A DNA stretch of 64,000 nucleotides from Blasia pusilla (Eukaryota): contig CM114271.1 in NCBI GenBank assembly GCA_050084515.1, positions 33,170,001-33,234,000 on the forward strand, written 5' to 3'. Shown in pieces: positions 28,430 through 62,211 of the stretch; position 1 is the stretch's first letter, and each line of letters begins with the position of its first letter. Below the pieces are notes generated by a model. The model saw only the letters and a list, made by a program, of their open reading frames with translations. It made no database searches and had not been told where the DNA came from. A program made the position numbers and the translations under genes.

Positions 28430-30065
28430 TCATATGAGTGAAGGGGAGTTCTGAATACAAGGTGGTTCATAGAGAGGTAGAGGTCCACCAGAGATGGTTG
28501 TCAAATGGAGATACTAGTTTGCAGGATTGTAACAATGGCATTGAGACTTGCTATTGACAAACAAATATGATATGAAGCAAATAGGAATATGGATGATCTC
28601 GGATGGATATGTGGGGTTGCATAGATGCAAGCATCTGCCGTAGTTACACAAGGATGTGCAATAGTGTTGGATCCACAAGGAGAGGAAGTCGGTGGACACA
28701 ACATGCTTGCTCAAAAAATGTTGTCCAAGGCGATGAGGATTCCATCAATGAGTCCTAATCAGACCACTCGAAGCTTGGATGTTGGGGATGTACATATATG
28801 GCAAATGATGTGGGTGGTAGGCAACTTGACACCCATTACTAATCTTCACGAGGAGCCCATGCCGAGTACATTGTTGGAGGCCACTCGCAACAAGCATATA
28901 CTGTGCCCTGAGGTTTTCTGCCTTAGATGTCATTACATGGGGAGGTACACCCGTTGAGCTTTCCCGTTTGTTCACTACGCTATGTGGACGTGTAGATGTT
29001 GTGTCTGCCTCACTTTCAAAGGTAGTCATGTAGGAGGTGGTAGATCTGTCCTTGGAGCATGTGCTTGAGATGTCTACCAATGGTCCATGGCAAGTCGCAA
29101 CTATGAGATTGGCAAAGATGCATGCTAGACCCTCTATAGAGCATACCATGCTTGTACTTGGCATGGTGTTATTGGATAACCAAACAGAGATATGTGGCTG
29201 TGTAGATGTTGTGTTTGCCTTACTTTCAAAGGTAGTCATGGAGGAGGTGGTAGATCTGCCCTTGGAGCATGTGCTTGAGATGTCTACCGATGGTTTATGG
29301 AAAGTCGCGACTATGACATTGGCAGAGATGCATGCTAGACCCACTATAGAGCATACTATGGTTGTACTTGGCGTGGTGTTATTGGATAACCAAAAAGAAA
29401 TTTCACATTTGGTTAGTCTAGGAGGTCAAGTTTATTGTCTGCAACTTGTTTTGTTGGATTTAAGAATATAATCCTTGATTTTAGGGATTGCAACTTTTAT
29501 AGGTTTGGGCCTAAGTCAAACCAAAGTTGAGTGATGTTTGTTTTGCATTCAGATTTCACTAGATCGGTCAATATGATGTAGTTGATCACCGGAGATGAGA
29601 TAGTTGTGAGGCTTAGAAAAAAGCACCGATGAATAAGTCAAGGATCTAGGCCAAGGCGATAGTGACACATATTGAGCCCTATGGCGTCTAGGTGGGTTGT
29701 TTATTTCCATGTTGGTTCATTGGTGGTATGTTCTAACCATCACCAAGAGAGCTAGCAACATTTCAACTTTCAACAAGACCATGACATGGCTAGGAGATTT
29801 GATTTAGAACTGCATATCCATGGTCAATTTTCCTATGGAGAGGAATGTCATAAGGGTTGAATATTTTGATGATCGAGGAGATGTTCCTTTATAGGGATCC
29901 ATTGAGAATCTTTGACGAAGTACAAACACGGACGTGAAAAAATCTTGGAGTGAGGAGCTTATGGCTAATCGAGATGGGGCTAGATATTTTTGGGAGGAAC
30001 ACCATTGGTTTGGATGTCGTGTTACAAGCATGTCTATGAATACAACAATAATTGTATGTGGACCG
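28430..30065 (+). mobile_element. Old decayed fragment (gag C-terminus, protease, linker) of the same Gypsy family as 36612-46987
   Basis: EVVDLPLEHVLEMSTDGLWKVATMTLAEMHARPTIEHTM aligns with EVMDLPLERMLGPSTSDTWQAAAARMAEMPARPAIERAM. LVSLGGQVYCLQLVLLD aligns with the protease entry. Similarity continues to the TTPIVW region just before MTase motif I. Confidence 0.8.
28981..29400 (+). repeat. 210-bp tandem duplication (70 codons) inside the Gypsy relic
   Basis: 28981-29190 and 29191-29400 both run TATGTGG..GTGTAGATGTTGTG ... GGTGTTATTGGATAACCAAA. Confidence 0.9.
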
Positions 30066-35499: not shown

Positions 35500-36611
35500 A
35501 GAAACAACATCCTAATAATGGAAGGAGGCAAGAAACAAAAAAAGGAATGTATAAAGAAAATGGCAATAATCCAACATATATTAATTCCTTGAAACAAATT
35601 TGGCATGAATACTAGTGGTTGATCAAACGTGAATAGACAATGAAGTGAGGAGGCGCCAACCACTTCCACTTCATGTATCAATGCCAATGTTTCGATACGT
35701 TGTAATTCCATTGAGATATATTGTTGGAAATAAGTAGTAACAATGGAGAGAGGACTTTGAGAAGGGGCGAATTGATGATACTCAAGGGAATGGTAAGCAC
35801 ATGCTTTTAGGAAAGTATAAAAAGACATATATAAGTGCTAAAAAATTTCCACTACAAAAAGAATAAATCCATCGGTTGAATGTCGTATTGCATAACTTAA
35901 TTCCTTGATTCTTATTGATGCATTGGCCACTAAACCTTAGTGTGTGCAACCCGACATATGAAGTTAGAACATGTTGGATCAACAACCAATAGAAAAAAGT
36001 CAACTCAAGCCTTAACATGATCAACTCTTTGATGAGAGATTACTTCTACATTAGAAGGTAAGACATATAGCTACTCTTATCTAACGGTGTATTTAGTATT
36101 ATTAGCCACGAATGTTATTTCTTCTCTTATCATATCATGCATCTCTATTTTTCCTCCACCATCTACATATTGGAGAATGAAGATACCCTTGGATCAATGG
36201 GCTCCCCATACACACAATTAGACACACCTAAAAGCAAAGGATGAGGAAGTCCAAGGTGTAATTCCACAACTTTCAAGAATATACTTTATGGATAACAAAA
36301 TGTAAAAATAAGAGGATTTGTAGTAAGTCATGCCCCTTCCCCTCCCTCTTACACCCACACATGAATGTAGACAAGATCAATGAGTATCAAAGGGCGCCTC
36401 AAAGAGATATAAGAAAATTCAATTTTGTGCAAATTCTCAAAGATAAACTCTTAAGGTCAATCAAACCCTTCTATAATCAATTGAGTGAAAAGAGGTAGAA
36501 TAGCTTGTGTAGCAAGTGGAAGAAGAGTATGGATAGATCTCTGATATTTTTGGAATAATACATCCCCCTTCTCTACATATGCCACATAATCCATTAAAAT
36601 AGATGCATCTC
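35500..36611 (-). mobile_element. 3' part of a decayed CRE-like non-LTR retrotransposon (Zn finger / restriction-like endonuclease region)
   Basis: Minus strand gives LHLGLPHPLLLGVSNCVYGEPIDP (cf. RLGLPHP..C.CG..ID) and TYFQQYISMELQR (cf. terminal RQRVSIALQR). It continues on the far side of the Gypsy insertion. Confidence 0.65.
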
Positions 36612-36739
36612 TATGGTGCGCATACACATCGCTACACAACATACATCGTTGTCACCAAACACGCACACAAACACGCACGATCCCATGCTAACTCATGACA
36701 TCCAAACAACGAGACAAGAAATACCAAAATATCTCCAAT
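36612..36739 (-). repeat. Split repeat B2 (128 bp), 3' terminus of the element
   Basis: Direct copy of 37250-37377. Its left end TATGGTGCGC is a two-mismatch version of TGTCGTGCGC. Confidence 0.92.
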
Positions 36740-37247
36740 AAAGTAAGATCCAATCTCTCTCTACACAATCTCACACCATAGCTCTCAAAGGTGTGCACTC
36801 TCTCTCATGTCAAACCAAACCGACTCTGCTAATGAAAGGCTTGGGTTACACTCACAAGGCAAGGGACCATAGCTCCGCCGCCTCATGCCAAGAGGTTCAA
36901 CAAAAAGAGAATGAGCTCTCAAGCTCTTTCTCTCCTTGGGATATATACCCCCCCCTCTCCCAAGCTCTCTCCATGGTAACCTATTCTCCCAAGTCACCTC
37001 CTTGGCTCTTGACCTGATGTAGGAGGTCAAGGGCCACTTACCAAAATAGAAAGTTGATCATATACTCAAAATGGTAGTTATCTAAAATAGTAAGTTTCTC
37101 AATATGGCTCCAAATGAGCCAAAATGAACCTGCTCTCTCAGGTTTCCCGGGGCCTCAACAGGTCTTCCTCGACCTCCTAGGCCTGTCCTACACTACTCTT
37201 GAAGACGTTCTACTAGATCTCACCGATCTATCCTAAAGGACGTGACA
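36739..37247 (-). repeat. Split repeat A2 (about 509 bp)
   Basis: Direct copy of 46481-46987, roughly 96% identical by eye. Begins TGTCACG on the minus strand. Confidence 0.95.
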
Positions 37248-37249
37248 GT

Positions 37250-37377
37250 TGTCGTGCGCATACACATCGCTACACAACATACATCGCTGTCACCGAACAC
37301 ACTCACAAACACGCACGATCCCATGCTAACTTATGGCATCCAAACAACGAGACAAGAAGTACCAAAATATCTCCAAT
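37250..37377 (-). repeat. Split repeat B1 (128 bp)
   Basis: Lies directly downstream of the purine tract. Ends ...GCGCACGACA and is joined to A2 by a 2-bp spacer (CA-ac-TG on the minus strand). Confidence 0.92.
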
Positions 37378-37390
37378 CGCCCCCCTAGCT
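37377..37390 (-). promoter_or_regulatory. Polypurine tract candidate (AGCTAGGGGGGCGA)
   Basis: G-run immediately upstream of B1. No purine tract precedes A2. Confidence 0.6.
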
Positions 37391-37569
37391 GGTGGTTAGG
37401 TCCCTCTAACTCTAAATAGCCATCTATCCCTACCTACCATGACATACATCTCTCAGACGCTAAGAGCAAGAAGGTCGGGTGCTCATGTGGCCCCATCGTT
37501 AGTCGCCTTCTTGTCATCCATGTCAGAGAAAAAGTCGGGATCAAAACCTACCTAGTATCTCCTCTATAT

Positions 37570-37710
37570 ACATTTGGGACACATCCATCATCCTCGAGGA
37601 ACCCTAGTGAGAGGTGGCGTCAGACATGCCATATGCCAACCTCTCAAACAACCATCACAGACTAGCATTGTGGCCGCACCACGGGTAGAACCATACAACA
37701 TACAACGCAA
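37570..37710 (-). pseudogene. PHD finger at the integrase C-terminus
   Basis: RCMLYGS...[30 protein letters not shown] follows the C4HC3 pattern with the LxCDxCxxxWHxxCLxPPLxxVPxGxWxC signature. The second Cys is mutated to Tyr and there is one stop. Confidence 0.9.
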
Positions 37711-37719
37711 GCCTGCAAG

Positions 37720-38900
37720 AACTACTACTAAGCTCGGATCCATTGTACCATCAATGTTAGGAAGGTGACATGGTGCACAATCACGCACATGGTCCTTCCA
37801 TACCATACCATCGCGTCCCTCCAGCAAGAGAACATCGGATGGCAAAACGTAACGCACTCTCAAGATAGTGCGCCCTGCAGTCACATCCAACGTCGTAGGT
37901 GCCATTTGCTGCAAGTAGACATGATCTCCCTAATGAAACCTCCGGATAGTTGGTCGATAACCACCACCCCGAATAGTCGCATACCTCAACGTATCCCGAT
38001 GTTGCGCAATCGCCAAGTTCTTGAACGTCATGGGCATCACTCTCCAAAACAACTCAGCCCTCTGAGAACATGCTCGCATCCATACATCTGGGTCATCAAG
38101 TTCCAGCATCTCGATGAATGGCCGTAGGTAAGTCTAGCTCTCGCCATAAAGTGGCAAGTACAGTGAAAAAGACGCTAAGGATGCCTGCCTGTTGAATCTG
38201 TATCCCATCGCCAACCAGGGCAACTGGAGGTCCCAATCTCCTAGGTGACCTCTTTGCAAGCCATACTTGCGTAAACCCCTCTTTACCGTCTGCACAACTC
38301 TCTCCCCTAATCCATCCGCCTCGGGATGATCTCGCGAAGTCGTACGATGGTCGATGAGCGCCTGATCACACAAGGCCTAGAACTCACCGTGAAACTTGGA
38401 ACCCTGGTCTGTCAACACCTCAGCCGGTGCGCCATAATGACTCAACACTCTGTCAAGGAAGGCATAATCTACTCCCTCACTCGCTTTGTCAGGCAATGCA
38501 ACCAACTCGATCCACTTCAAGAAGTGCTCGACCATCACCAACACATAACGAATGTGACGCTTCGTCAAAGGCAAAGGTCCTGCAAAATCCAAACTCCATC
38601 TATACCCTAAGCCCATGATCGGTAATGCATGCAACTGTGGAGTCGGAGCATTGAATGATGCTCGGACCCGATCACATACCATGCACTTGGCAACAAACTG
38701 CTGAACGTCAATCTGCATGCCTTGCCACCAATACTCAATCTAGAGCAAGCTGTACGTCCGCTTCACCCCAAAGTGATCCAACTCCTCATGGGCATGCTGC
38801 ACTAGTCGTGCTCTCAGCGAAGGATGTGGCACTACGCGTACTCTACCATCCTCCCACACCCTCAAGATATGTGTCTCCTCCCAACGGAACCGTCTGGCCC
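37720..38900 (-). pseudogene. Retroviral-type DDE integrase (HHCC plus core)
   Basis: HAHEELDHFG...KCMVC zinc-binding motif; WSLDFAGP...VLTDQG...HPEADGLGERVVQTVK core. Broken by stops. Confidence 0.93.
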
Positions 38901-39190
38901 ATTGTAGGATCTGATCTCGCTCTCTAGCACCCACAGTGCTCGCAATACTGCCAATACGAAGGTACTCCAAGACTATTCCATCATCATGAATATCTCGGCC
39001 ACTTGTCGTCTCCTCACCGGCCTCGGGATCCAAGGACTCTCCACTAGACCTCGCCATCGAAGTCTCCACACTCTAGCTCTCCATAGCCAACATGCCTAAA
39101 TAAGCTGCCGCGTGCCATCCTGGCACTGACTCCTCATCACTCTCTCCATGCCACCGAGCTCCAGTCGCATCTCGCTGACTCGGGCATGGA

Positions 39191-39757
39191 TTAATAACTC
39201 AATCCATCTGCATCTTGGTTGAGCGTCCTAGGTCTATGTACCACCAGAAAATCATATTCCTGCAACAACAGAGCCCATCTCGCAAGCTTCCTTGTAAGCT
39301 TGTCGGACTCCATCAACCACTTCAATGGTTGATGATCAATGATGATGGTAAAGGGGTTGCCGAATAAGTAACACCTGAAATGCGCGATAGCCCACACTGC
39401 AGCCAAGCACTCATCCTCATACGAGCTGTACTTCGCCTCTGAAGCGTTGTTTGAGCGGCTAGCATAAGCCACCATGAACTCTCTACCCTCATCATCATGT
39501 TGGGTGAGCACCGCTCCAAGCCCAAACATGCTCCAATCTGCGTGCAACTGGAAAGGACGCCCCTGGATCGGTCTCCTCAAGATGGGCAACGTCAACCTGT
39601 CCTTGAGCAACTGAAATGCTTGCTCTTGCTCATCCCCCCAGTGCCACTCATGATCCACCTTTTTCAGCAAGGTCAAGGGCTTTGCAATCGAACTGAATCC
39701 CTTGACGTATCGCCGATAGAATTTCGCCAATCCCATGAATGCGCGAACACGGCTCAC
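39191..39757 (-). pseudogene. RT connection / RNase H
   Basis: VRAFMGLAKFYRRYV; PFQLHADWS..GLGAVL; YASRS; ECLAAVWAIAHFR; DHQPLKWL; LARWALLLQEYDF. Confidence 0.93.
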
Positions 39758-39759
39758 AT

Positions 39760-40500
39760 CTGTAGGGCACGTGGAATGCGTGAGATAGCCTCTACCTTTA
39801 TATGTTGAACACCAAGGCCCCCTGGGTATATCGTATGACCCAAGTACTCAATCTGGTCGTAGAAGAACTTGCACTTGCCTCGATGTAGCTTCAGCCCATG
39901 TAATTGCAATCGTCGAAACACCTCCTCTAGTTATCGCTCATGCTCCTCAACCGTGGCGCTAAAGACTATGATATCATCAATATAACACGTAGCAAAATCC
40001 AGACCAGCCAAGATCCTATCCATGACCCTTTGAAACTCAGCCGGGGCGTTCTTTAACCCAAATGGTAAGAACCGCCACTAGTACAAACAATCCTTCCCGT
40101 GAGGATCAATGCCCCAAAATGCCGTCTTCTGCATGTCCTCCAATCTGATAGGCAATTGATGGTATTCGGCTTGCAAATCCAATGAACTGAAGACCTTTGC
40201 GTGACCAATCACATCAAAGATCTCCTCAGGGGTGGGCATGGCATACCTATCGGACTTCGTCTGTCGATTGATAGGTCGGTAATCCCCACACATCCGCCTA
40301 TCCGTCCAGTTGCCATGCACATCCTTCTTGGCGGGCATGACAGTGGCAGATGCATACTCCCCATGGGACATCTCCACTAGTCCTGCTCCGACCAAGTTCT
40401 GGCTCCTACTCTGAATCAGAGCCCTCTCCATATCATTGTACCTGTAGGGTCATCGGAAGATCGGCGTATCACTCGAAAAATCAATGCGGATCCCTGGTCC
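39760..40500 (-). pseudogene. Reverse transcriptase (Ty3/Gypsy type)
   Basis: [43 protein letters not shown] and catalytic YIDD (about 39970-39985). Confidence 0.95.
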
Positions 40501-40955
40501 CTTGAGCGTACCCAAATCCTCCATGCTAAACGCAAATCCTCCTATAACTCCCGAGGAACTGATGTATCCGGCGCCGCTCTCCTCCTGTCAACTTAGGGCC
40601 CATATCTGGCTCCCAAGTCTCCATCGTGACTATGGTAGGACTCTCTGGCGCGGGTATCGGTGGTTGCTATGGTGCAACCCCGTCTCGAACAATAACACTC
40701 GGATGCTCTTCTACAGCCAACTGCAAACTCTGATCTCCTCCACGTGCAGTGCTTGGAACCACGCTCGATGTTGTGGCTATCATCTCCTCGCGTACTTGCA
40801 AAACATCCCAAGAAGACCAAGGGTGTCTCTCCTGATCTCCCCTCGTGTGTCGATCTCTTTGGGTCTCGCCCCCAACCATTGCCTCCACCGTCTCGGTAGG
40901 CATGGGGCTCACCAACGCAACCGCTGTGATCTGTCGCGATCTCATCCGACAGCTG

Positions 40956-41920
40956 CTAAGCCACTCCCAAGCTAAAGATCCATGTCAAGCAGTTTAGGTC
41001 CATCGCCTCACCCAAGACATGGCGTCGTGATGCCTCTGATACTGACGGGACTTCCGTCACTCCTGTGGGAAATCCCATCGCTCGCTTGCTCTCGTCGGCA
41101 TTGGGCTCCACCAACCGCTGAACTTGGTCATCCCAAACCAAGCCAGGACCGGCCTCCTTGTATGCATAGGAAGCGAAGAAACTCACAAACGTGGGCAAGG
41201 CTGCCCGCGGCCTGCCTACTCTGTTGACCATAGTCAACGGTGGTCGATCATCGTGCGTCATTGCTTATGATTGACGACCTGGATCCAGAATGGAATCCAC
41301 TAACAAATGGGAGCGGCGCTCCACTCTCGCATACGCCCTCCATAACACCGCATGGGGCACCAAGTTGGTCCACCATAGACGCGGGCGATGGGCTCTAGAA
41401 CCTACACTCGCCGCATCTAAGAACACTGTTGGGCTGATCCAGGCACGCACCTGATGAGCACTCGTTACCACCCGTGATATGGAGTCTCCTAAGATCGGCA
41501 CATTCTCGAGAATGTAGGCTGGAGAACAAGATTGGTGCTCCTGCAACTGCCGTAAGACCCTCAAAATCTCCCAAAACAATCTGGACCGAGTGTCAGCCAA
41601 CCCGCTACCTCGTCCAACACTCAATTGGCCCTCACATGGCCAATCGGAAATGACCAAATCAATGGTCCCTACCCGCTCTAAGTCCTGCGCCCCCAACAAG
41701 GAAATATCCTCGGTGAGGGAAACTGGTACCTCAGATCGCTGGACGCAAATAATAAGTCGGGAAAACAGAGGCGTAACTGCGCCACATGTCGTAGTGAGAC
41801 GCGCCTCGCAACATCATCACTCTCCACATATAGGTACCGTTGTACTTGCACTCCTGCTTGCAAAACAGCAGCTAACCCGGTGTTAATCCCTCCAAAGAGA
41901 TCTAACACTCGAATACCCTC
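40956..41920 (-). pseudogene. C5 cytosine DNA methyltransferase domain, DNMT3-like, embedded in pol
   Basis: Motif I IRVLDLFGGI; motif II YVESD; motif IV DLVISDWPC; motif VI YILENV; motif VIII AHRPRLWWTNL (cf. DNMT3 AHRARYFWGNL); motifs IX/X ESKRAMGFPTGVT...RRHVLGEAM (cf. ERxFGFPxHYT...RQRLLGRSW). One frameshift near 41700 and a stop near 41265. Confidence 0.92.
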
Positions 41921-42326
41921 CTCCGGGATACACCACACAATGGGTGTGGTATCCAAGGGTGTCATCGTAGCACTCCCTGCTACCTCCGGCTTCTCAGACC
42001 CATCCCGCTCCGGTGCAAACGCTTCGCTCCACGCGGTCTGCACGTTCTCATCTGCCAATCGTCGAAGTTTCTCAATCGAGCCCCACGACGACACCTCTCC
42101 TCCACGGAATGATGTAGCTACCATAATACTCCTCTCCATAGAAATGTCAGGAACAAGAGTATCCTCTGCATGGACATGTCCCTCAATCAAATCACTAGGC
42201 CAAGTGATGGCATTGCTAAATGCTGCTAAGGTCGCCATCTCTTCTGGACGTTGCTCGATCACTGCACCTGTGAATCGAACGGGAAATGAGCTAAGGCGCC
42301 CATCACCTGACTGCCTCTAAATGCTG

Positions 42327-42660
42327 CTAAGGTCGCCATCTATAGGATGCTAACTCCTCCCGGTAATCCAGCAAAAACCCCATCCGGTATAACATTGCTC
42401 CACCAACCAAGACGTCGTAGGACTCTGCATCAATCACTATTGCCTTGACGCGCACCACGGACTCATCTCTAGGATGTCCCGGGCGAATCCTGACCACGAC
42501 CTCATGTCGGGTGATATACTGTGTGGTACTCGCTCCACCCAAGGATGTCTGTATCCGGAATGGAAAACACTCCACGTCGGCTCTCGTCAAGCCCAATCCT
42601 CTGAATGACGCCTTCCCCAACATCAGGGGTTGTGCTCCTGAATCCAACAAGACGTGCTAC
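42327..42660 (-). pseudogene. Retroelement aspartic protease
   Basis: VLLDSGAQPLMLG active site; YDVLVGG at the C-terminal (ILG-like) position. Confidence 0.85.
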
Positions 42661-43559
42661 GGACTAAAAGCTCTACCTCCGAGACTCACCAACTGGAATA
42701 CCTCTCCTCGGTTATCCAGCTACACAACACTAGGAGAAGCCATGGCACGCTCTATCGCGGGTCTAGCGGGCATCTCCGCCATCCTAGCAGCCGCAGCCTG
42801 CCATGTATCTGACGTGGACGGCCCGAGCATTCGCTCCAAGGGCAGGTCCATCACCTCCTCTGCAATCACCTCTAAACGTGATGCAAGAACTCCAACTCTG
42901 CGCTCACATAGTGAAGCGGCCAGCCAAAAAGCCTCGGCGGGCGTGCCCCCCAACGTCATAACATCGGAAGCAGAAAATAAAGGAGTGTGGTACACAACAG
43001 TGGCCGCCCCCAACAACGTGCTCGACACATGCCCCTCCTGAGCATCAGCAATAGGAGTCGTCATACTTGCTTCTCCCATTTCCCTTCGTGCCTGCACACC
43101 AACAACATCACCAGCTCTCCAAGGACTCTGATCAGGACCCATCGATGGGGTCCTCATCGCCTCAGACAACGTTAAAGACTGAGGAAACCTAGTCTGTTTC
43201 ATGGCTTCCCCTCGCTGTGGATCCAACTCTACGGCTGCTCCACGCATCACAACTGCGGCGGCCTCCATCTGGGCAATCCTGCACATCCAACTAGGATCCT
43301 CTAGATCTCTGGCTGCTCCATATGATGTCGATGCCACGGATCCGACATCTGATAACCTCAATGCCATAGCGGCAATCTGCTCCTGTAGTTGCTATATCTG
43401 AGCAACCATCCCTGCCTCACGTCCGGCGTCCCCCTTGGTGTGTCTAGGTGGTAGTACTCTACCTCCTCCACGGGCAGCTCCACCAACTTGTCGGGCAACT
43501 CCAGCTCCTCATCCCCCAACGGGACCACTTGGTGCACGATCTCTAGGCTCACCTAGACC

Positions 43560-44830
43560 GGCTACTTGCCCTGGTGCCCTCTCTAGCTCTTGGTCTAGAC
43601 TTTACTCAGGATGTAAACTGAAACACCTAGCGCGTATATGACCATACCTCTGACAATAGTCACACTGATAACCTCCTGGTGCAGCACCATCTCCTCCTCC
43701 CGGTTGAGGCGCACGTCCATTATTCTGACGAGTGCAATGGCGCTAATAATAGGCTCCACCACATGACCAACAAGTAATAGTAGGCGGCTGTTGTTGAGCC
43801 ACATATGAAGGCGGAGGTCTCTGTGCCAAGGGCTCCCGTTGTCCTCCCTGAGCTCGTGGTGCCACAGTTGACCTATCTCGGAGTCCACGTTGTTGCACAG
43901 GTGGTGCAGCCAATCGTGATAGCTCTCACCCAGAACCCATGGTGGCTACGCTCTCCTCCGCCATGTTGCTCTCAATGTTCTCGGTGGTCCTAAAAACATC
44001 TCTCAACGTAGGGGAGGTGGTCATAAGAAGCACCCCCTCCCGCACCCGTGGCTGTAGGGTCTAGTCCAACATCGTGTACCATGACTAGATAGCCTGAGCC
44101 TCTGTCACCCCCTGAGTGACGTTGATCAACCAGCGCAAGCGGGTGTAAGCCTCACGTAAACTCTCACCCGAGCGCCTCTGGAAGTTGTGGATGCTCCGCA
44201 ACTTTTCCGTCCGTACCCCTTGGTAGCTCGCCCTCAACTCAGCAAAGAACTCAACCACGGGGTTGAACCTGGGACAAACCCAACTAGATGGTGCAACTGC
44301 TCCAGTGTGAGTGACCCCTCCTAAAACATCACTAGTGGAAGAGGAAGTAGCCTCTCCTGACTCCTCCTCCTCATCTGGGAAGGGCTCCGTCCATGACACA
44401 TAGTGGGGGTCGTAGTAGAGTCGCCATGCCTCAATCTCCTGGGCATATCTGTGGGAGAACTCATGGTAATCGTCCATGGGTGCCCCCTCTAAATGCTGAA
44501 ACATACCGTTCCATGCTGTAAACGGGTTGAACTCTCTAGAGTTCCTGGCCCGTTGGGAGTTGCACCAACTCCTAAACTCTGCTATGAAATCCTGCAACTC
44601 AATCGTACCTACTGCACCTGAAAACCTACACGGTCCTCTACCCTGGTCGCCCATCTCGTACGCCCAATTGGTAGGACCACTCACAATGTGTGGCAATGTG
44701 CTCACAAAATCCTCTACACCCTCCCCCTTGTCTGACGATGACACAGAAGGAGGTCGAGGTGGTCCCTGAAGTGAAGACCCTCGGAACCTCACGCCACTCC
44801 GCGTAAAACCTGTAGAGCTACTCTCGGGTT
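43560..44830 (-). pseudogene. Gag-like region with two Zn knuckles
   Basis: Retrotrans-gag-like FSGAVG..LQDFI..F ... FQRRSGESLREAYTRL. Zn knuckles CWSCGG...RHC (degenerate, about 43735-43775) and CDYCQRYGHIRARC (about 43620-43665). Confidence 0.8.
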
Positions 44831-46465
44831 CACCACCTCGCCTCTCAAAGTCCCGACTGAACGCGGTGATGACCCTTGTGCCCTTCTCACCCGATCACTC
44901 TTGCCTCGCGAGTAATCCCTCAATCACTCATCCCAAACATGCGGCACTCGATCTACACTCTTCCTTCCCGAGACATGTAACGTGCGGAAATTAGCGGCGT
45001 GGTGGGGCAAATCGACCAGGCTATCATTTCATCGATAACCTACCCTCAACTCCGGATATCCCACACATGTCTATGTCCCCTAAATCACTACATAAATGAT
45101 GCTCTCAGCATCCACACACCCAATATCCCCAAATAAACTATCCAAATCCCAGAATCCCTCACACGTGCAGGGTAAAGGACCGGAATGGGTAACATGAACA
45201 CATGTCAATGTCGCTCCTCAACAACTGCAAATCTCGACCCCAACTCGGTCGTGGAGATAACTCCTCCAATCAGCAAGTCATACTCCTCCCGGACTGACGT
45301 TGCTCAAAACTCCTCGATAGACGGTGTGGTTCCAACGGAACGGTGTTGCGTTGCAGGTGGCACGGAACGGCTACTAACGGCATGCCCTCGATGATGGGAT
45401 GCGGCACTCAGCGGCTTACCCTCCTCAATCAACAATAAACCCCCACTCTGCTCCACAATGCCGGAGTGGCTCCGTGATCGAGACGGTGTGGTGCGGCCAC
45501 GAGCGACACGGCACGGCAAACGGCGGCGCGTTGCGACTACGGGCGTCACAGTACGGTACCTGATCGTCGTTGAGCGGCTACCAATCACAACATAGCAGTA
45601 TGAAATCAAAACTCAAACACTATAACAGGAGGTCATATGCCATCACAAGTTGATGACGGTGGCGGCCAAAACAAAGTACGTGATGGCAACGCAAGTCCGA
45701 GAATCAACGAACGTTGTGGCAGACCCTCCACTCCGTAAGGGCAGAAATGGCAACCAAGGGTGGACAACGGACGATGGACCATTGACGGTGACGGTTGACC
45801 GTTGCTGGTGACGGCTGAAGAGTGATGATGATGGTTTACCATTGATGGTTGACGGTGACTACGACGGCGACGGCCGCCGCCGGTGTGGCGGCTGGTTGAG
45901 GGTTTGCACAATTTAACCCTAAAAATCGCCTAGGAATGGCAGTTTTGCAAGATTATTCATAAATTTTTGCTCGCAACTCCAAGTTGCACACTGTTTATTG
46001 CACAACGTGAAATAAATAGCGTGCACAGCTTCACAATCTACGCCAAAATCAAAAAATATTTAGAATCAAACATTCCAGTAAAAACTGACGGGGACTGTGG
46101 TAAAGCCCAATGTCTCTTTATCCTACACAAAATTCGGCAGCGATTCCGCGATAATTCCTCCCAAAAAAATACAACCTGTAAAAATGCAAATCAGCAAGCA
46201 ACATGGTGCTCCCAAAAGTACCGGCACGGGGCATCCCGCCCCCATACTCAATCCCTATCAGAAATTGGATAGTGCTTCCGTGCGCCACTCTTCCACACGA
46301 AAAATCGGCAAATGCAAAGAACAATCCGAGCAACCCTTGCTCCGATGAGCACTCCCATGAGCCGTTGAACGGGGAACACGGTCCCTAACCTGAAAAAACA
46401 GCGAGTGACCAGCGAGCTCCCCCATGAAGCTCTCTCACTCTCTCATTTTCTCATTCTCTCTTTCT

Positions 46466-46481
46466 CTCATTCTCTCTTTGT
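46466..46481 (-). promoter_or_regulatory. Self-priming primer-binding site (ACAAAGAGAGAATGAG)
   Basis: Occupies the PBS position at the end of A1 and is the exact reverse complement of 46642-46657 inside A1. Confidence 0.7.
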
Positions 46482-46987
46482 AAAGTAAGATCCAATGTCT
46501 CTCTACACAATCTCACACCATAGCTCTCAAAGGTGTGCACTCTCTCTCATGTCAAACCAAACCCATTCTCCTAATGAAAGGTTTGGGTTACACTCACAAG
46601 GCAAGGGACCATAACTCCGCCGCCTCATGCCAAGAGGTTCAACAAAGAGAGAATGAGCTCTCAAGCTCTCTCTCCTTGGGATATATACCCCTCCCCTCTC
46701 CCAAGCTCTCTCCATGGTAACCTATTCTCCCAAGTCACCTCCTTGGCTCTTGACCTGATGTAGGAGGTCAAGGGTCACTTACCAAAAATAGAAAGTTGAT
46801 CATATACTCAAAATGGTAGTTATCTAAAATAGTAAGTTCCTCAATATGGCTCCAAATGAGCCAAAATGAACCTGCTCTCTCAAGTTTCGGGGCCTCAACA
46901 GGTCTTCCTCGACCTCCTAGGCCTATCCTCCACTACTCTTGAAGACGCTCTACTAGATCTCACCGATCTATCCTAAAGGACGTAACA
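46481..46987 (-). repeat. Split repeat A1 (507 bp), 5' terminus, with TATA box TATATAT at 46681-46687
   Basis: Starts TGTTACG on the minus strand. Direct copy of 36739-37247. Confidence 0.95.
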
Positions 46988-48500
46988 TCTCCTTGGAGAA
47001 AACTTGATATAATAATCAAGGCAACCAAAGCTCAACTTCTCTAAAAAGTTTTTGGTATAAATGTTACTTTTGAAAAACAGCCCTATATCTCCAAAATAAA
47101 TAGGCAATATTGCTTGTTATGAAACCAAAACACTATCATCTCCCTCAAATACATTCAAACTAGAAGTTAACCCAAGTCCTCATAATAAATTTATCGAAAA
47201 AAAGCCAACCAATCTAAGAAATTTGAAGTGGGAGGACAAGTACAAAGAAGGTAAGCCAATCATTGTAGAAGACATTAGAAGAGAATCCCATAAGCCAATT
47301 GGGTATCCCTAAGACGAGGTAACAATTGAAGTTATTCTATGTCTTTTAAAAGGGCCTCGTCCAAGAACTTAGATACATAGTCTATGAAGCCAATTATGAC
47401 AGTAGGAACTCAAATCTCTCCGATATAAGTGATAAAATCTGGATTAGATGGGATGAATGTTGAGGGAAAACATGAAGGAAACCATACCTAACATCTTCTA
47501 GGTTGGAATTTAAATCTAACATCGAGAGTTGCTCCATAAAATAGGTATAAGGAGGAACTTCACAAGAAAGACCTTCAATAAAAGTAATATCAACAATAGA
47601 AAGGAAGAGACAAGATGAAAATGCTTGGGTTGATACTTGGATGACAGTAAAATATGCAAAAGCAAAAATTGGACCACCCATGAATCACCATAATATGTGC
47701 CATATATTAATTATCTATTTCTCAAATATGACCACACAAAAAATGAAATTGGATACGTCAAGCACATTGACTTGAATCAATACCTAATCTAGATGAACAT
47801 AAATAGTAGAGCATATCCCATAAACGACTACCTCGCAACCACTAAGGATGGCCACTCCAAATTAATGAGGAAATATATAGACACTAAATTGAGGATGAAA
47901 TAGCAAGTAGAGGGATTACTCAACTAACAAGTATTAAACCTCTCCAATAGCCAAGGGGAAAACATCAAAAGGAAGCTTGGACATAGCTAATAAACAACAA
48001 GCCTCCAAGAGCCTAGAGATAGAGAACAGTAGACAATATGTCATAATATGTGCATACTTATTATATAGAGAGCTAAACCCACCTCTCAAATCTATGGGGG
48101 TAGAAAAAAGCATGAAGAAGCTCAAAAACCATGCATAGTAGTTAATCCATTGCTAAGCAAGAAATATGAAGAAACACCATCGTGAAAATCTCCAAGACAA
48201 GTTCTAAGTCAAGATCTCTTGCACAGTCTTCCATGAAAGATAGTACATTATCACTTACAAGAGGATGAAGAACTTCTAAGAGTGTCAATATATTTGCACT
48301 TGGAACCACCTGAGATATATGTCTCAATACTCAAGTCGCATGTGAAAACTCACCAACTTCCCCCCAAAGGAGGCTATGTTAGAGAGGTTGTATTGAAGGC
48401 CTTCTATGATTGGCACGTTGAGTGGAGTGAGCCATTGCTAACAGCTCTGTTTGAAAGTAGATGTATTTTCTAAAGACTCTCCCAATCCCCAAACATAAAA
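46988..48500 (-). mobile_element. RT part of a decayed CRE-like non-LTR retrotransposon
   Basis: LLAMSKLPFDVFPLAIGEV (cf. LLAxxKxxGGIRPIAVGE); H*FGVAILSGCEVVVYG (cf. QFGVxxxGGCExxVH); GGPIFAFAY...SCLFLSIVDITFI (cf. PLFAL...ADDTHI). Confidence 0.75.
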
Positions 48501-53952: not shown

Positions 53953-54573
53953 TCAAATAGATTTGTAGATTCTATTTCTCATGATTTTGGACTTTTCTTA
54001 CTTCCAATAGCGTTGAGGTTGCCACACTTCTTTTAGTGAATACTAGTAAGAGTGTTTTTTCCATTTTGAGTTATTAGTGTGGCATATAATTTTCCAATTT
54101 TAGAGTCATTTCTACTTTATTACTTCAGAGAAAAAAATGTAATTATAAAATTCCTAACTCCATAAAAGGCAAGAGATTCCTCATACTCGAATCTAATTTT
54201 TCATTTATTTTACAATATTATTTCAGAGATAAGAAAAATAAGTGTATGCTCCCTTCTTGCTATTTTAAAATATGTGCGTCTACATAATCTTCCATTCATA
54301 CATAGTCACACGTAAGTTAGTAACTCACCTCATTTCCTTTTAATATAAGATAATATGACACCTCATATTTCTTTTGTGAAAAAATATTTGCTTCTTTTAG
54401 AGAGATTTTTTATAAAATCCTTGCATAATAATCCCCTAATTTGATTATTAGCATAGATGCTCATAGAATCCTAAAAACAATTACAACCATTGCACTCTAT
54501 GGATGGTTTGCTTAGCATCTACAACTAGGTCCCATGTTTTCTCTTTAATTTTTCAATCCTTTGATACATGTGA

Positions 54574-55565
54574 TGTCACGATCCTCATAACCAAATGACC
54601 GTCAAGTGGAACATCAAAACTCTAGTGGGCTCATGCTAGAATGGTTTGCGTGTTGGAGAGGTCTCTTGAAAAAAGCATTAGAGATGAGAGATTCACCATA
54701 TGATGCTTTTATGGTCGCGACTAAGAAATCTGAACTTGACGTGAACCACGACTTGAGAGGAGTCCAATACATGAAGAGAGGTTGTCAAAGAGGTGAGAAC
54801 CGGATTTGGAACGTGACCAACATTCGGGATTTTGAATGTATTTTGGACCATAACTTTTAGTCCCAAAATGTGTTTGGAATAAGTAAGGTGGCTTTGGAAA
54901 GCTTATGCAAAGCAAGTTCCAACGCACTATAGATCTCAGCAAATGCACAAGCAAAGGCTGAAAAACTTCAGAAAAACAATTGTTAGGAGAGTTGGGTTGA
55001 GGGCCAAAAAGAGGGCTCGAGAGTCTTTCTGAAAAGATAGGGGAAGGGTTGAGAACCCCATAAGTACTCGTAAAGGAGAAGGTCTCAAGAGTGTTTGGGA
55101 CTCGAACCCCACTTTGAGGCGTCCCGGATAAATGAAGGGTACGGAATGGATCGATAGTTTGGCGTTGGGATTCAAAACTTGAACCAAGTCCAATAGAGTG
55201 GATTTCGGAGGCCACTTTTAGATTCCAACCCACGACTCATTGAAGTGGATCTTGGATGGGGACCCATGGGAGTTCCATTTGATAGTTGGGATCGCTAGGC
55301 ATACAAACAACGTTTTAGGTGCTAGACTATCCAGAAAGTGTGTCCCAGATCTCGAAAGACTTGGCTGTGTTGGGAAGTGAGGAACTAGGCAGGTTGAGCT
55401 TGATGAAGTGTTGAGTTGAGAACTCGGTGGGTTGGAAGGCTGGTTGATCGAGACCAGACTAACATGAGTGTGTTTAGGTTTAGATCAACAATGAGAGTGT
55501 GTCCTACTGAACGTACATTTCCACAACACTATAGATTGGCGTTCTAGGGGAATAGGCGCACGACA
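54574..55565 (+). repeat. Diverged solo LTR of the chromovirus family
   Basis: TGTCACGA...GCACGACA, collinear along its length with the LTR at 55862-56863. Flanks TGTGA / TGTAG (degenerate TSD). No PBS or internal region. Confidence 0.85.
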
Positions 55566-55861
55566 TGTAGGGCTCTACATTACATCCTCATCCATTCATT
55601 TCAAACATTAGGTGATTACTTGAATTCTCTTCTCACATGTCTTTTTGTGTTTCTAACTTTCTTTATTATTGTCTCCATAAGTGTCAAGTTTAGGCATGCT
55701 TTGTCTTGTTTGATCTTCTTTGTAGGGTTATTCTTTTTATATCAAGGATATTGTTGTCATATTTCTTCTTTCTCCATTCGCATCTATTTTGGTGTACAAA
55801 TTTCTTGTATATTTCTTCCATTCCTCTACTTTACTAGAAATTTATCTCATGAGATCTTCCT

Positions 55862-56863
55862 TGTCGCGACCCTCATGACCAAACAAGTGCCAAGCGGAAC
55901 ATCGGAACATTAGCGGGCTCACGCTAAGATGGTTTGCGCGTTGGAGTTGTCTCAAAGAGGAGACAAGAGACGAGACGCGAGCGAGAAGTCGCGTTTCAGA
56001 TGTGATGGTTGCGACTCAGAAACCTAGAGCAAACGCGGAATGAGACTTGAAAGAAGTCGAGTCTAGGAAGTGGGTTGCCAAAGGAAAGATCCGGATTTGG
56101 AACGCCACTTGCGTTTGAGAGTTTCCGACTGTATTTATGGCCATAACTTTTAGCGCCGAGATGCGTTTGGAGCAAATAAGAGTGCGTTGGAAAGCTTATG
56201 AAGAGCCAGTTCAAACACACCAAAGATCGCTGCAAACACATAAGCAGCGGCCGAGATACGACCCGAAAACGATTGTAAGTGGAGTCGGGTTGAGGGCCAC
56301 AATGAAGGGCCCGAACCTCTTTTCCCAAAGGGGAGGGGTTATTGGAGAACCCCAGAAGTACTAGTAAGGGGGAAGGTCTCCGAGAGTGCTTGGAACCCAA
56401 ACCCCACTTTGGGCGCCGCGGGGCGGCTCAAGGGCATGGAACGGAACGCGAGTTTGGGCGTTGGGTTGGAAAACCTGCACCAAGTCCATTGAGGCAATTT
56501 TAGACATCCCTCTTGGATTTCACGCCGCGACTCAATTACTTGGGTCTCGGTTCGGAACTCACACGAGGACCGTTGAACAGTTGGGATCGCTAGGCGTGCA
56601 AGTGTCGTTTCAGATCCCTGGACTAACCAGGAAGTCTGTTCCAAGTCTTGAAGGACTTGCCATGTGTTGGGAGCTAGGAACTAAGGAAGGTTGAGCTTGA
56701 TGAGACGCCGAGTTTAGGACTCGGTGGGTTGGAACGCCGGTTGGCCAAACCCGACTAACGAGAGTGCGTGTTTGGGTGTAGATCGGCGATGAGTTCGTGA
56801 CCTACTGAACGCACGCTTCCGCAACACTAAAGATTGACGTTCAAGGAGAGTAGGGGCGCGACA
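55862..56863 (+). repeat. 5' LTR
   Basis: TGTCGCG...CGCGACA; matches 62212-63207. Confidence 0.97.
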
Positions 56864-56865
56864 AA

Positions 56866-56877
56866 TGGTATCAGAGC
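56866..56877 (+). promoter_or_regulatory. Primer-binding site, tRNA-iMet type
   Basis: TGGTATCAGAGC, 2 nt after the 5' LTR. Confidence 0.95.
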
Positions 56878-57079
56878 TTATCCTTGGAGAGCGAGAACTT
56901 GGGGTCGTGGGATCAGCCGGACGCTTGGGAAATTTCAAGGTAGCGGCTAGACTCGGACGCTCGAGGAGGGACGCAAGAAACGAGGAGGAGATCTGAGTGA
57001 GTTGGCTTGGAGATGGCGATCAAGGGAGAACAACCCAAGAAGCGCCGAATCAAGCGACGTGAACCGAGAGAGGAACCAA

Positions 57080-60000: not shown

Positions 60001-61524
60001 TCGCAAGGGAGGAACACATGCCATCGGCGACATAGGTCTTGAGAGCAATGTTCCCTAAGGAAACAGATCTGAGAGAAGGATTAAGTGAAGGATATATGAA
60101 GGATGCTCAAGCAGGGGAATACGAGGAAGTTGAAGCAGGGGTGAGAAGGTGGCCAACATAAGTTTGAGGCACGGTTTACTAAGGTTCAAGCAGTAGGATC
60201 TATGTAGGGCAAGGCGAATGCGAACCAAGGTGTTAGTTTGAATGTCACGCGGACCCTTGGCGAGGACATAAAGGAGAGAAATCTCGCTAGTTGTTACATC
60301 AAAGCGGTTCTTTTGCCCAACATGAAGGAGGATGTTGCTCAATATGTGAAGACTGTGTGACACCTGCCAAGCGAATAGAGTCTCTTATGATAAGAAACAA
60401 GGCTTGCTTTGCATCCCTTGCCCGATCCCCAAAGGACCCTTGCAAAGTGTGAGTATGGATTTCATCACGAGTCTTCCGAATCTGGGGATACAACGCTATA
60501 CTTGTGATTGTTGATCGGTTTAGCAAGTTGGCGAGATTCATGCCGACGGTGGATTCACTGAACGGCGTATCTGACGGCGCAACTATTCCTCGATAGCGGT
60601 GGCGTGCTCATGGTTTGCCGAGGAGCATTGTTTCAGATCGGGATCAAAGTTTACGAGTGCTTTCGGAAGCACTTGTTGAAGGTTTAAGACCAAGCTGAGT
60701 TTGAGACGGCTTTCCACCCCGCAGACGGATGGGCCAGATGAAAAGGTAAACTCTATCATGAATCAAGTTTGAGGAATTATGTCAATCTTGATCAACGCGA
60801 TTGGATCAAGTGGTGAGCATGGCGGAATATCTTGCTACAACTCGACCAAGATTTTCGCAACAGGAGAATCTCCGTTTCTCCTGGAAATGGACAAGAGCCA
60901 AAAAGGGCCTCTTGATCTAGCCCTTTCGAAGGGTACTACATTGGCACGAACACGACAAGCAACGGCAGAAAGTTTGTTGGTAGAGATGCGAGAACGAGAA
61001 GAGAGCGCGAGGCGAAGTCTTGCACAAGCTCAAATGAGGTACGTTAAGCATGCTAACAAGAGTCGGCGCCAAGTACGATTCCAACTTGGAGAACAAGTGT
61101 GGTTGAGTATGAAGAATCTCACTCTTCCGAAAGAGTTGTCTGCGAAGGTGTCACGCCAAGTATCTTTGGACCGTATGTGATTGTGACAAACCCGTTTGAG
61201 GATGTGTATACGTTGAGGCTGCCGGACGAGTTCAAGATTCACCCGACCTTTCATGTGTCATTGTTGAAGAAATACCTTCAAGATAATGGACGTTTCGAGC
61301 GGAGACAGGTGGTGAGACCGCACCCGGTCATCGTAAATGAGGAGCCGGAGTTCGAGGTGGAGACCATCTTACGTTCGAGGCGTCGGGCCAACAAGTATGA
61401 ATACTTGGTAAAATGGAAGGGCTACCATGTGAAGGAGGCGACTTGGATTGCGGAGGCGGATTTGGAACACGCGCAAGAATTGTTGCGTGACTTCAAGCGA
61501 ACACAAGCAAAGCACATACGTTAG
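57080..61524 (+). pseudogene. gag-pol polyprotein (frameshifted as assembled)
   Basis: [14 protein letters not shown] knuckle, [10 protein letters not shown] protease, [10 protein letters not shown] / MPFGLCNAP / YIDD RT, RNase H and integrase fragments (SMDFIT, FHPQTDG), and chromodomain FEVETILRSR...YLVKWKGY...TW. The start is approximate. Confidence 0.92.
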
Positions 61525-62197: not shown

Positions 62198-62211
62198 AAA
62201 AGAGGGGTGAG
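62198..62211 (+). promoter_or_regulatory. Polypurine tract
   Basis: AAAAGAGGGGTGAG directly before the 3' LTR. Confidence 0.9.

Follow-up and report, generated by a model that had tools for sequence, protein, structure and literature searches.

Structure of the element

The window, i.e., the stretch of 64 kb from Blasia pusilla that was analyzed here, contains a retroelement at positions 36612–46987 of the minus strand, with no second copy of it elsewhere in the 64 kb. Along this strand the order is A1 (507 bp), gag, PR, DNMT, RT, RNase H, integrase, PHD, PPT, B1 (128 bp), AC, A2 and B2. The features are the following.

36608–36611, no strand: target-site duplication (TSD) TCTC on the 3' side of the element, identical to the 4 nt at 46988–46991
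36612–36739, minus: B2, terminal 128-bp repeat, whose end is the right integrase end with CA mutated to TA
36740–37247, minus: A2, A portion of the full 3' LTR (B1-AC-A2); begins TGTCACG, and its end joins the first base of B2
37248–37249, minus (gt on the plus strand): AC dinucleotide separating CA (B1) from TG (A2) in the internal head-to-tail att site CA-NN-TG
37250–37377, minus: B1, first 128 bp of U3, beginning immediately after the PPT
37378–37403, minus: polypurine-tract (PPT) block GGACCTAACCACCAGCTAGGGGGGCG with a G-run, directly 5' of B1
37588–37929, minus: C-terminal ORF with a PHD finger (PF00628, E 1.8e-05)
38134–39072, minus: integrase, HHCC zinc domain and DDE core (PF17921, PF00665), interrupted by stops and frameshifts
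39191–39847, minus: RT-connection and RNase H (PF17917, E 1e-35; PF17919)
40078–40449, minus: reverse transcriptase fragment (PF00078, weak at E 0.008, under the curated cut-off)
41265–42316, minus: C5 cytosine DNA methyltransferase domain within pol (PF00145, at 41265–41813), with a frameshift near 41678–41813
42327–42656, minus: ORF in the protease position, placed by position only, with a DSG motif seen by eye and no Pfam match
44085–44894, minus: ORF in the gag position, placed by position only, with no Pfam match
46466–46481, minus: putative self-priming PBS ACAAAGAGAGAATGAG, sharing one base with the end of A1, all 16 nt complementary to A positions 331–346
46481–46987, minus: A1, sole repeat at the 5' end; begins TGTTACG, with B absent upstream
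46642–46657, minus: predicted start of the genomic RNA and of R (self-primer), about 176–177 nt from the end of A
46681–46687, minus: TATA box, read from the sequence, lying 30 nt before the RNA start predicted above
46988–46991, no strand: TSD TCTC on the 5' side, matching 36608–36611

The element is a degenerate (dead) copy of a Ty3/Gypsy retrotransposon lineage with a DNMT3-type methyltransferase in pol. It has the Gypsy order PR-RT-RNase H-INT with an HHCC and DDE integrase, RT being a weak Pfam match and PR positional, and the DNMT domain sits between the PR and RT positions (that of PR again by position only). Of 20 element ORFs compared with Pfam, none matched a tyrosine recombinase, in agreement with an earlier reading made from the sequence only, which had described an HHCC/DDE integrase and no recombinase. 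Pfam found a PHD finger in the element ORFs and no chromodomain. Liverwort proteins with a DNMT domain are homologues (up to 66% identical), one of them also carrying RT and RNase H. In a Marchantia relative the domain order is the same (DNMT at 460–529, RT at 833–919, RNase H at 974–1098), and a clear RT is present in relatives in the same order as in the window element. The 27 homologue matches included no Klebsormidium protein, the closest named alga being Closterium with 38% identity. As judged from these protein similarities, the relatives of the lineage are in liverworts, and a liverwort is a more likely host than the alga suggested by the sequence-only reading's mention of algal Gypsy elements.

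The ends of the element do not carry two equal LTRs. Only A is present at the 5' end, against B-NN-A-B at the 3' end, i.e., the split direct repeats A1...B1-A2-B2 of the DIRS order. A1 and A2 are ~96–97% identical (490 matches, 14 mismatches and 7 gap columns over 511 aligned columns), and B1 and B2 share 119 of 128 positions (~93–94%; 94% over 124 nt), so that the two pairs have diverged alike (97% and 93%). Repeats this long (~500 and 128 bp) would not agree at 93–97% by chance. The element opens with TG in A1 and closes with TA in B2, a CA that has mutated, and on the minus strand the two ends meet again internally in the head-to-tail joint GCGCACGACA-AC-TGTCACG. TG...CA ends with a TSD in the Ty3/Gypsy range of 4–5 bp are present, the TSD being TCTC in the window and 4 bp long in the relatives. 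The arrangement of the ends had been noticed in the sequence-only reading (the A-only and B-ac-A-B ends, the TG...CA termini with their internal copy, and TCTC on both outer sides), and its coordinates are right once they are read on the minus strand.

Layout in the relatives

As relatives we used 80 DNMT-anchored metagenome loci, among which the 5' and 3' ends were classed; their contigs are short-read assemblies, in which some repeat collapse is possible. A complete B-NN-A-B 3' end was found in six independent loci (L005, L021, L030, L066, L074 and L077), and L004 has B-NN-A as far as the contig end. Perfect 4-bp TSDs flank 10 of the 12 complete elements (the window copy, L005, L030, L077, L073/74, L009, L027, L071, L019 and L014/17), the exceptions being L042, which matches at three of the four positions, and L066, which is ambiguous. 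Of the 23 3' ends in the relatives, 13 have a single B (A...B). Perfect TSDs occur with A...B ends as well. L046 (B only) is the same insertion as L074 (B-AT-A-B), with identical flanks and TSD, and is the only one of the 13 single-B ends demonstrated to be a secondary deletion. At the 5' side the picture was uniform. Among 24 unique 5' ends, window included, none had B upstream of A (the full B-NN-A LTR), none had B after A1 (A-B and then the PBS) and none had the mirror form A-B-NN-A...B. Two complete, equal LTRs in other copies, which the sequence-only reading had named as the finding that would speak against it, were therefore not encountered at any of these 24 ends.

The spacer between B1 and A2 measures exactly 2 nt in all eight elements having the joint. 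The A2|B2 junction, proposed before to be the end of U5 joined to the start of U3, is exactly that in six of eight elements, and the two variants contain extra bases, in L030 a 17-nt filler together with bases of the PPT end, and in L019 10 nt of the PBS plus 5 nt. Such PBS- and PPT-derived bases would be natural in an LTR-LTR junction that has just been formed. The 26-nt PPT block immediately before B1 is nearly identical in the window and the metagenome relatives; it is conserved between two families with an identity of only 79%, and 27 gap columns, in their B repeats. No column separates copy 1 from copy 2 in either A (342 columns) or B (116 columns), and therefore both copies would be remade from one template in each cycle.

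A putative self-priming PBS and the replicative LTR

The sequence-only reading had placed a PPT before B1 and a PBS after A1. Both are there, but the PBS appears to be of the Tf1-like self-priming kind rather than a tRNA site, with the 5' end of the RNA predicted accordingly. The sequence after A1 complements the element's own A repeat. The duplex between PBS and self-primer has a predicted energy of -24.8 kcal/mol, a value reached by 0 of 500 shuffles. In the relatives the predicted self-primer site lies at the homologous place, about 170–177 nt from the A end, and TATA-like motifs are found 27–34 nt upstream of the predicted RNA start in eight of them. The pairing is 16 nt long in the window copy, against 17 nt in L005 and L037, and the pairing sequences differ between the window and these two loci at the same place, i.e., they covary. 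At least 10 nt of pairing at the homologous place was found in 10 of 24 5' ends; 12 to 14 of these ends lack it or have a short one, which counts against this assignment. Self-priming has been described for Tf1/Sushi and predicted for most plant elements of the Tcn1 clade, with mosses among the hosts (PMC6317226). In these elements the PBS right after U5 pairs with what is predicted to be the start of their own RNA, as it may do here; permuted ends, present here, are not among the features that the cited part of PMC6317226 reports for Tf1/Sushi and Tcn1.

Because the conserved PPT abuts B1 and the putative self-priming PBS abuts A1, the replicative LTR (from PPT to PBS) is B-NN-A, as already suggested in the sequence-only reading, and the integrase ends lie side by side inside its U3 (CA-NN-TG). 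In the integrated copy the left end is this TG, in the 5' LTR; the right end is the CA of the extra B behind the complete 3' LTR.

A possible integration route and its alternatives

The family-wide layout suggests an unusual preparation of the DNA copy for insertion. Probably, although with considerable room for doubt, the normal integrated form in this Gypsy-DNMT lineage is A...B-NN-A-B, generated by U5|U3 joining and DDE opening at CA-NN-TG. Canonical reverse transcription would give B-NN-A...B-NN-A, and the end of U5 would then be joined to the start of U3, either because the molecule is ligated to a 2-LTR circle or because the plus strand, while being finished, switches template from end to end. 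At the CA-NN-TG of the PBS-proximal LTR the DDE integrase would then open the molecule, yielding TG-A...B-NN-A|B-CA, which it would insert with a 4-bp stagger. A...B-NN-A-B would be the only replication-competent form, because it alone combines a promoter and R-U5 on the left (5') with a full U3-R on the right (3'). The A...B copies would be, at least in part, later deletions between B1 and B2, and the remaining single-B ends could be direct products of another route. A closed-circle intermediate is plausible, and an end-to-end template switch of the reverse transcriptase would yield an identical U5|U3 joint. Integration from a circle, as had been proposed, would account for the U5|U3 joint. 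If a 2-LTR circle were cut at random, the mirror A-B-NN-A...B should be as frequent as A...B-NN-A-B, and it was observed at 0 of 24 5' ends. This absence could be reconciled only by a directional choice of att site, by extension of the plus strand only, or by fast collapse of the mirror through recombination between its A copies. The original observation is confirmed and its interpretation partly supported. Activity and mechanism are deduced from fossil copies, because every copy examined is old and broken (longest ORF at most 545 aa).

A direct linear route would do without the U5|U3 joint, A...B being the normal product and the A...B-NN-A-B copies rare by-products, the only ones that replicate. 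The integrase would cut either linear B-NN-A...B-NN-A cDNA at its two internal att sites or a 1-LTR circle at its only one, and we regard these two versions taken together as unlikely. They would account well for the majority of A...B among the relatives (13 of 23 3' ends), with perfect TSDs, and for the missing mirror form (0/24). However, an A...B copy could not support minus-strand transfer because the 3' R is absent, at least one such copy (L046) is the same insertion as an A...BAB copy (L074), and an extra B with the exact U5|U3 joint would still require an end-joining step. That the true LTR is A+B, the 5' LTR having lost B and an extra B-NN having been gained before the 3' LTR, is barely credible. 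The TG at the start of A and the CA at the end of B do resemble ordinary LTR ends, but the PBS abuts A rather than B, the PPT abuts B1 rather than A2, and B follows A1 in 0 of 24 5' ends. A local accident in an ordinary two-LTR Gypsy (for instance a B duplicated in tandem, a solo LTR nested within it or next to it, or repeats wrongly assembled) might be suspected from a single copy known from an assembled contig alone. Against it stand the same layout, 2-nt joint and TSDs outside A1 and B2 at six other independent loci of a diverged family, the similar divergence of A1/A2 (97%) and B1/B2 (93%), and a printed description of the layout in Klebsormidium (PMC5890265); rearrangement or misassembly is largely refuted and its probability very small.

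Comparison with known systems

PAT-like, Ngaro and TOC1 elements have terminal split repeats A1...B1-A2-B2, and the window element shares with them this order and an internal B-A joint that repeats both element ends head to tail. We know of no TSD in the DIRS order. In the replication proposed for such tyrosine-recombinase elements the split repeats template a closed circle; for the window element the recombinase inserting it would have to act in trans or be unrecognised. The A-coding-B-A-B layout is called typical of DIRS elements (PMC5890265). Here, in contrast, there is an HHCC and DDE integrase and no recombinase in the 20 ORFs tested, the TG...CA ends and 4-bp TSDs (10/12 complete elements) are a mark of DDE integration, and PPT and PBS are positioned as in LTR elements. 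We therefore consider such a replication most improbable.

The layout itself is not new. KnitGypsy-Dnmt3 of Klebsormidium nitens (de Mendoza et al., 2018) has DIRS-type repeats, A-coding-B-A-B, together with Gypsy domains (PMC5890265, Fig. 4c legend). By the description given there, it resembles the window element both in this layout and in the insertion of a DNMT3-type methyltransferase into a Gypsy-type pol polyprotein; it differs in coming from an alga, the element studied here being liverwort-related. The legend of that figure offers no mechanism for the layout, and the main text does not give PPT, PBS, TSD or mechanism (PMC5890265). An A...B-A-B layout on a Gypsy-DNMT element is thus already in print, and the sequence-only reading overstated its novelty.

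Among retroviruses, 2-LTR circles are mostly dead ends, unlike the U5|U3 joint of the present lineage, which would be a fixed part of every replicating copy. The retroviral circles also have a U5|U3 joint, sometimes with extra bases derived from the PBS or PPT, and an LTR-LTR junction with a CA...TG palindrome that integrase could cut into insertion-ready ends (PMC1905944, PMC1180852, PMC4372172). Integrase cleavage of palindromic LTR-LTR junctions has been described for HIV-1 and foamy virus (PMC1905944, PMC1180852). The retroviral palindrome coincides with the U5|U3 joint, whereas in the present lineage it lies 115–128 bp inside U3, separate from the joint.

Organization of the Gypsy-DNMT element

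The Gypsy-DNMT retrotransposon at window positions 36612-46987 carries all the recognisable coding capacity between its repeats on the minus strand. When this strand is read, repeat finding, self-BLAST and domain order bear out the layout A1-coding-B1-AC-A2-B2 claimed by the sequence-only reading, A1 and A2 being copies of a long repeat and B1 and B2 copies of a 128-bp repeat.

Features of the window element, in coding order
46481-46987, minus strand, A1 repeat (repeat finding and self-BLAST)
44085-44894, minus strand, ORF at the gag position, without family match, 5'-most of the coding order
42327-42656, minus strand, ORF at the protease position, without family match
41265-42316, minus strand, C5 cytosine methyltransferase domain (PF00145), frameshifted
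40078-40449, minus strand, RT fragment, weak match
39191-39847, minus strand, RNase H (E 1e-35)
38134-39072, minus strand, integrase HHCC and DDE core, domain matches
37588-37929, minus strand, PHD finger, 3'-most of the coding order
37250/54-37377, minus strand, B1 repeat (repeat finding and self-BLAST)
36739/40-37247, minus strand, A2 repeat (repeat finding and self-BLAST)
36612/16-36739, minus strand, B2 repeat (repeat finding and self-BLAST)

The two B copies share 94% identity over 124 nt, with 119 of 128 positions matching in a global alignment, and the two A copies share 96% over 511 columns. The element starts with TGTTACG... in A1 and ends with ...GCGCACCATA in B2, where the CA has mutated to TA, while the internal joint reads ...GCGCACGACA-AC-TGTCACG... 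on the minus strand; TCTC borders both ends, at 36608-36611 and 46988-46991. The claim of a DDE integrase without a recombinase also stands, both the HHCC and the DDE parts being present and none of the 20 element ORFs tested matching a tyrosine recombinase. With no open frame longer than 269 aa, this copy is dead, and no further copy was found in the 64-kb window by self-BLAST. A fragment at 28567-29510, in opposite orientation, resembles the element's gag-PR spacer (64-68% identity) and contains a 211-bp tandem duplication (28981-29401); it is probably the remnant of a related element.

The DNMT ORF matches liverwort proteins with the same DNMT domain (Calypogeia fissa, Marchantia polymorpha) at up to 66% identity, and the order DNMT-RT-RNase H is present in one Marchantia relative. 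At 21670-22470 of the plus strand there is an intronless 266-aa ORF with a PADRE domain (PF14009, E 3e-21), whose best named relative, at 45% identity, is from Marchantia paleacea. Since both lines of evidence lead to liverworts, the host is most likely a liverwort rather than an alga.

Primer sites and the replicative LTR

B1 is immediately preceded by a block of 26 nt with a G-run at its end (window 37378-37403; coding-strand sequence GGACCTAACCACCAGCTAGGGGGGCG). The window and all relatives in which the context of B1 is intact have this block, in spite of the divergence of B itself. This conserved polypurine tract (PPT) places the beginning of plus-strand DNA, and therefore of U3, at B. At the other end, a stretch of 16 nt beginning on the final base of A1 (window 46466-46481) is perfectly complementary to positions 331-346 of A, a segment located 177 nt before A ends. 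Two relatives, L005 and L037, have a different sequence here, 17 nt of which pair with positions 164-180 of A, again 176-177 nt from the A end. Ten of the 24 unique 5' ends show pairing of at least 10 nt at the corresponding site, the others having deletions or substitutions there. The duplex energies, -24.8 and -23.0 kcal/mol, were reached by none of 500 shuffles. A TATA box (TATATAT, window 46681-46687) is found 30 nt upstream of the paired segment and TATA-like motifs lie 27-34 nt upstream of it in eight relatives. Judged from these pairings, the architecture is one of self-priming, in which the RNA, from its predicted start, would fold its 5' end back on the primer binding site (PBS). Self-priming has been described for Tf1/Sushi and predicted for most plant Tcn1-clade elements (in the parts of PMC6317226 consulted), and the putative likeness to the element studied here consists in the complementarity of the PBS to the predicted RNA 5' end of the same element.

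A tRNA-type PBS was also considered, starting with TGG in a TGGGGG... motif 40-53 nt downstream of A1, and rejected because it is too distant from the repeat, the self-primer fitting exactly at offset 0. The motif (window ~46420-46432) recurs at this distance in the window and in relatives and may be part of a leader structure. In relatives (L005, A1 153-180, and the homologous site in L021, L030, L066 and L074) the self-primer is the second arm of a small hairpin, CTCAAAGAAC-NNN-GTTCTTTGAG; the first arm, situated between the TATA box and the predicted RNA start, has the sequence of the PBS in sense orientation.

Because the PPT adjoins B1 and the self-primer PBS adjoins A1, the LTR as set by replication is B-NN-A, where NN is the 2-nt spacer between B1 and A2. 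Comparison among copies thus agrees with the proposal that the stretch from PPT to PBS is B-ac-A in the window. U3 then consists of B, NN and the 5' part of A (330 nt in the window, ~163 nt in the relatives), R-U5 of the final ~176 nt of A, and the integrase ends, the CA of B and the TG of A, are adjacent to each other within U3. This structural reading, with B-NN-A as the LTR, the A2/B2 joint as U5/U3 and the att site (CA-NN-TG) within the LTR, is well supported by the sequences compared.

Recurrence of the layout among relatives

Relatives were collected by scanning metagenome contigs with a DNMT alignment, which gave 80 loci (designated L plus a number) with flanks of up to 10 kb. Self-BLAST was carried out on the 40 loci of at least 7 kb, together with targeted comparisons, and A and B of five elements were searched by BLAST against all loci. 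The relatives are short-read metagenome contigs, and near-identical duplicate loci were removed before ends were counted. All copies studied are fossils.

We found 24 unique 5' ends (23 loci and the window) with A upstream of the coding region; in none of the 24 was B-NN ahead of A, nor was the arrangement A-B-A seen. At the 3' end, six loci (L005, L021, L030, L066, L074, L077) show PPT-B-NN-A-B and then flank. In L004, B-NN-A runs to the contig end, and L019 has a partial A joined to B. In L043 (identical to L044) B is fused to a partial A; the fusion (15185-15611) drops the last ~12 nt of B, NN and the first 4 nt of A, so that the att site is deleted, and A stops after ~170 nt, being followed by unrelated GC-rich sequence. 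Thirteen loci (L009, L016, L017, L027, L029, L040, L042, L046, L047, L055, L057, L069, L071) have a single B at the 3' end. Copies with two equal LTRs, whose existence would have spoken against the layout, were looked for among the relatives and none was found. The A of the relatives is ~340 bp long and the B ~115 bp, both only 78-79% alike to those of the window and with many gaps; the A...B-NN-A-B layout recurs in a family diverged from the window element.

Target-site duplications of 4 bp, immediately flanking the TG of A1 on one side and the CA of the terminal B on the other, are perfect in 10 of 12 complete elements. The pattern is the signature of DDE integration, the ends of the molecule being the start of A and the end of B.

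Target-site duplications of complete elements
Window: TCTC
L005: AAGG
L030: TCTC
L077: AATC
L073/L074 (same insertion as L046): TGTG
L009: TACA
L027: TGTT
L071: TACA
L019: CACA
L014/L017: AACG
L042: 3 of 4 positions match
L066: A1 start degraded

The single-B copies also have perfect duplications. One might take them for young identical repeats collapsed by the metagenome assembler, an explanation that we do not favour because they are as degenerate as the A...BAB copies. In one case two contigs, L046 (single B; 13300-13620) and L074 (B-AT-A-B; 7540-8300), agree in both flanks and in the duplication, L073 being likewise concerned. At least this single-B copy is therefore the L074 insertion minus NN-A-B, a loss of the kind expected from recombination of B1 with B2, and it is possible that the difference between the two contigs arose in assembly. 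The two diverge by ~8% inside the element and by only 1-5% in the flanks, for which gene conversion with other copies and chimeric assembly are possibilities.

Joints between the repeats

The A2/B2 joint corresponds exactly to the end of U5 and the start of U3 in six of eight elements (window, L005 with one substitution, L021, L066, L074, L077). L030 has 17 extra nt and bases from the PPT end, and in L019 the extra bases are 10 nt from the start of the PBS and 5 nt more. The proposal that A2/B2 represents joined cDNA ends is therefore well matched by the joints, the exceptions holding PPT- or PBS-derived extras. Retroviral 2-LTR circle junctions likewise comprise both exact joints and joints with PBS or PPT remnants. 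The B1-NN-A2 joint, on the other hand, has exactly 2 nt (AC, GC or AT) in 8/8 elements.

When six B1/B2 pairs and five A1/A2 pairs were aligned, no column separated copy 1 from copy 2, and B1 and B2 stay alike inside each of the two diverged families. The two copies of A and of B thus evolve in concert, being remade from one template in each cycle, and the A2/B2 joint is made anew. Identity within and between elements of the L family is 85-94% in both cases, as in old, star-like copies, and does not discriminate co-origin.

A candidate route of integration

In the textbook scheme, LTR retrotransposons and retroviruses insert the linear reverse transcript through the LTRs at its two ends, circles being regarded as dead ends. 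A U5/U3 joint in a fixed proviral form is hard to make without first joining the two cDNA ends and, with the att sites together inside U3, every replicating provirus would have to arise from a molecule with U5 joined to U3. In the route that we propose, canonical reverse transcription would give B-NN-A...B-NN-A, and the U5 end would then be joined to the U3 start, either by 2-LTR circle ligation or by an end-to-end template switch of the finishing plus strand. The integrase would cut CA-NN-TG in the PBS-proximal LTR, leaving CA-3'OH with 2-nt 5' overhangs, i.e., the usual processed ends, and would insert TG-A...B-NN-A/B-CA. Internal cleavage of palindromic LTR-LTR junctions is recorded for HIV-1 and foamy-virus integrase in the parts of the reports consulted (PMC1905944, PMC1180852). 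Of the integration from a circle that had been suggested, the U5/U3 joint and the internal att site were borne out by comparison, the closed circle itself was not. Our tentative suggestion, to which we give slightly less than an even chance, is that in the Gypsy-DNMT lineage of liverworts and Klebsormidium the DDE integrase bypasses the ends of the linear transcript and a U5-U3-joined molecule (2-LTR circle or RT-made tandem), opened at the internal CA-NN-TG, is obligate.

The chief problem for this route is one of asymmetry. Random cutting of a 2-LTR circle predicts that the mirror form A-B-NN-A...B should be equally frequent, and it was seen in 0/24 5' ends. The asymmetry might be explained by extension of the plus strand only, by a directional choice of the att site, or by the longer A repeats of the mirror form (340-507 bp vs. 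115-128 bp for B), which would make it collapse more quickly.

B is GT-rich (G+T 0.69-0.71 vs. 0.57-0.63 in A) and dense in TGTA motifs (window 36612-36739 and 37250-37377; L005, L077). We speculate that B, which follows A only at the 3' end, could be a downstream polyadenylation element marking the 3' copy of A; if so, this could be how the poly(A) signal comes to be used at the 3' LTR but not at the 5' LTR.

Comparison with known systems

De Mendoza et al. (2018) described KnitGypsy-Dnmt3 of Klebsormidium nitens, with DNMT3 inside the pol of a Gypsy element, and a figure legend of that paper (PMC5890265) already records the split-repeat layout. PPT, PBS, target-site duplication, att site and mechanism are absent from the text sections of PMC5890265 consulted, and its supplements may hold more. 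A 2025 paper (PMC12344493), in the part consulted, merely restates that DNMT3s occur within retrotransposons. Our literature search for a mechanism, or for other Gypsy cases with split repeats, gave nothing beyond the 2018 legend. The question raised in the sequence-only reading, whether algal Gypsy elements already show the arrangement, is thus answered with yes as to the layout, in Klebsormidium; as to the mechanism, the literature searched gave no counterpart. The element described here is probably a liverwort member of a kind noted once in print before, and for this reason its novelty is moderate. By its lack of a recombinase and its target-site duplications it falls outside the definition of the DIRS order, and from an ordinary Gypsy element it differs only in its unequal ends.

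If the proposed route were confirmed, there would be a natural system, across a whole DDE-integrase lineage, in which a junction-bearing form is the obligate precursor of integration, convergent in layout with tyrosine-recombinase retroelements, and the origin of a DIRS-like split-repeat layout without a tyrosine recombinase would be explained. That a DDE integrase should need such a precursor is an implication of real interest that can be tested, since predictions at the level of sequence (an RNA start 30 nt downstream of the TATA box, self-priming, PPT, 2-nt att spacer and variable U5/U3 joints) are open to experiment in Marchantia or Klebsormidium. In practice, programs that detect LTRs on the assumption of two equal copies will annotate these elements wrongly in bryophyte and charophyte genomes, and likewise their single-B deletion derivatives.

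Other features of the window

The window also contains a second, ordinary LTR retrotransposon at 55862-63207, with LTRs of ~1 kb each (55862-56863 and 62212-63207) that are 97.9% identical and a CCHC-protease-RT ORF at 57908-59110. Directly upstream of it, at 54570-55566, lies a third LTR-like copy with 72% identity.
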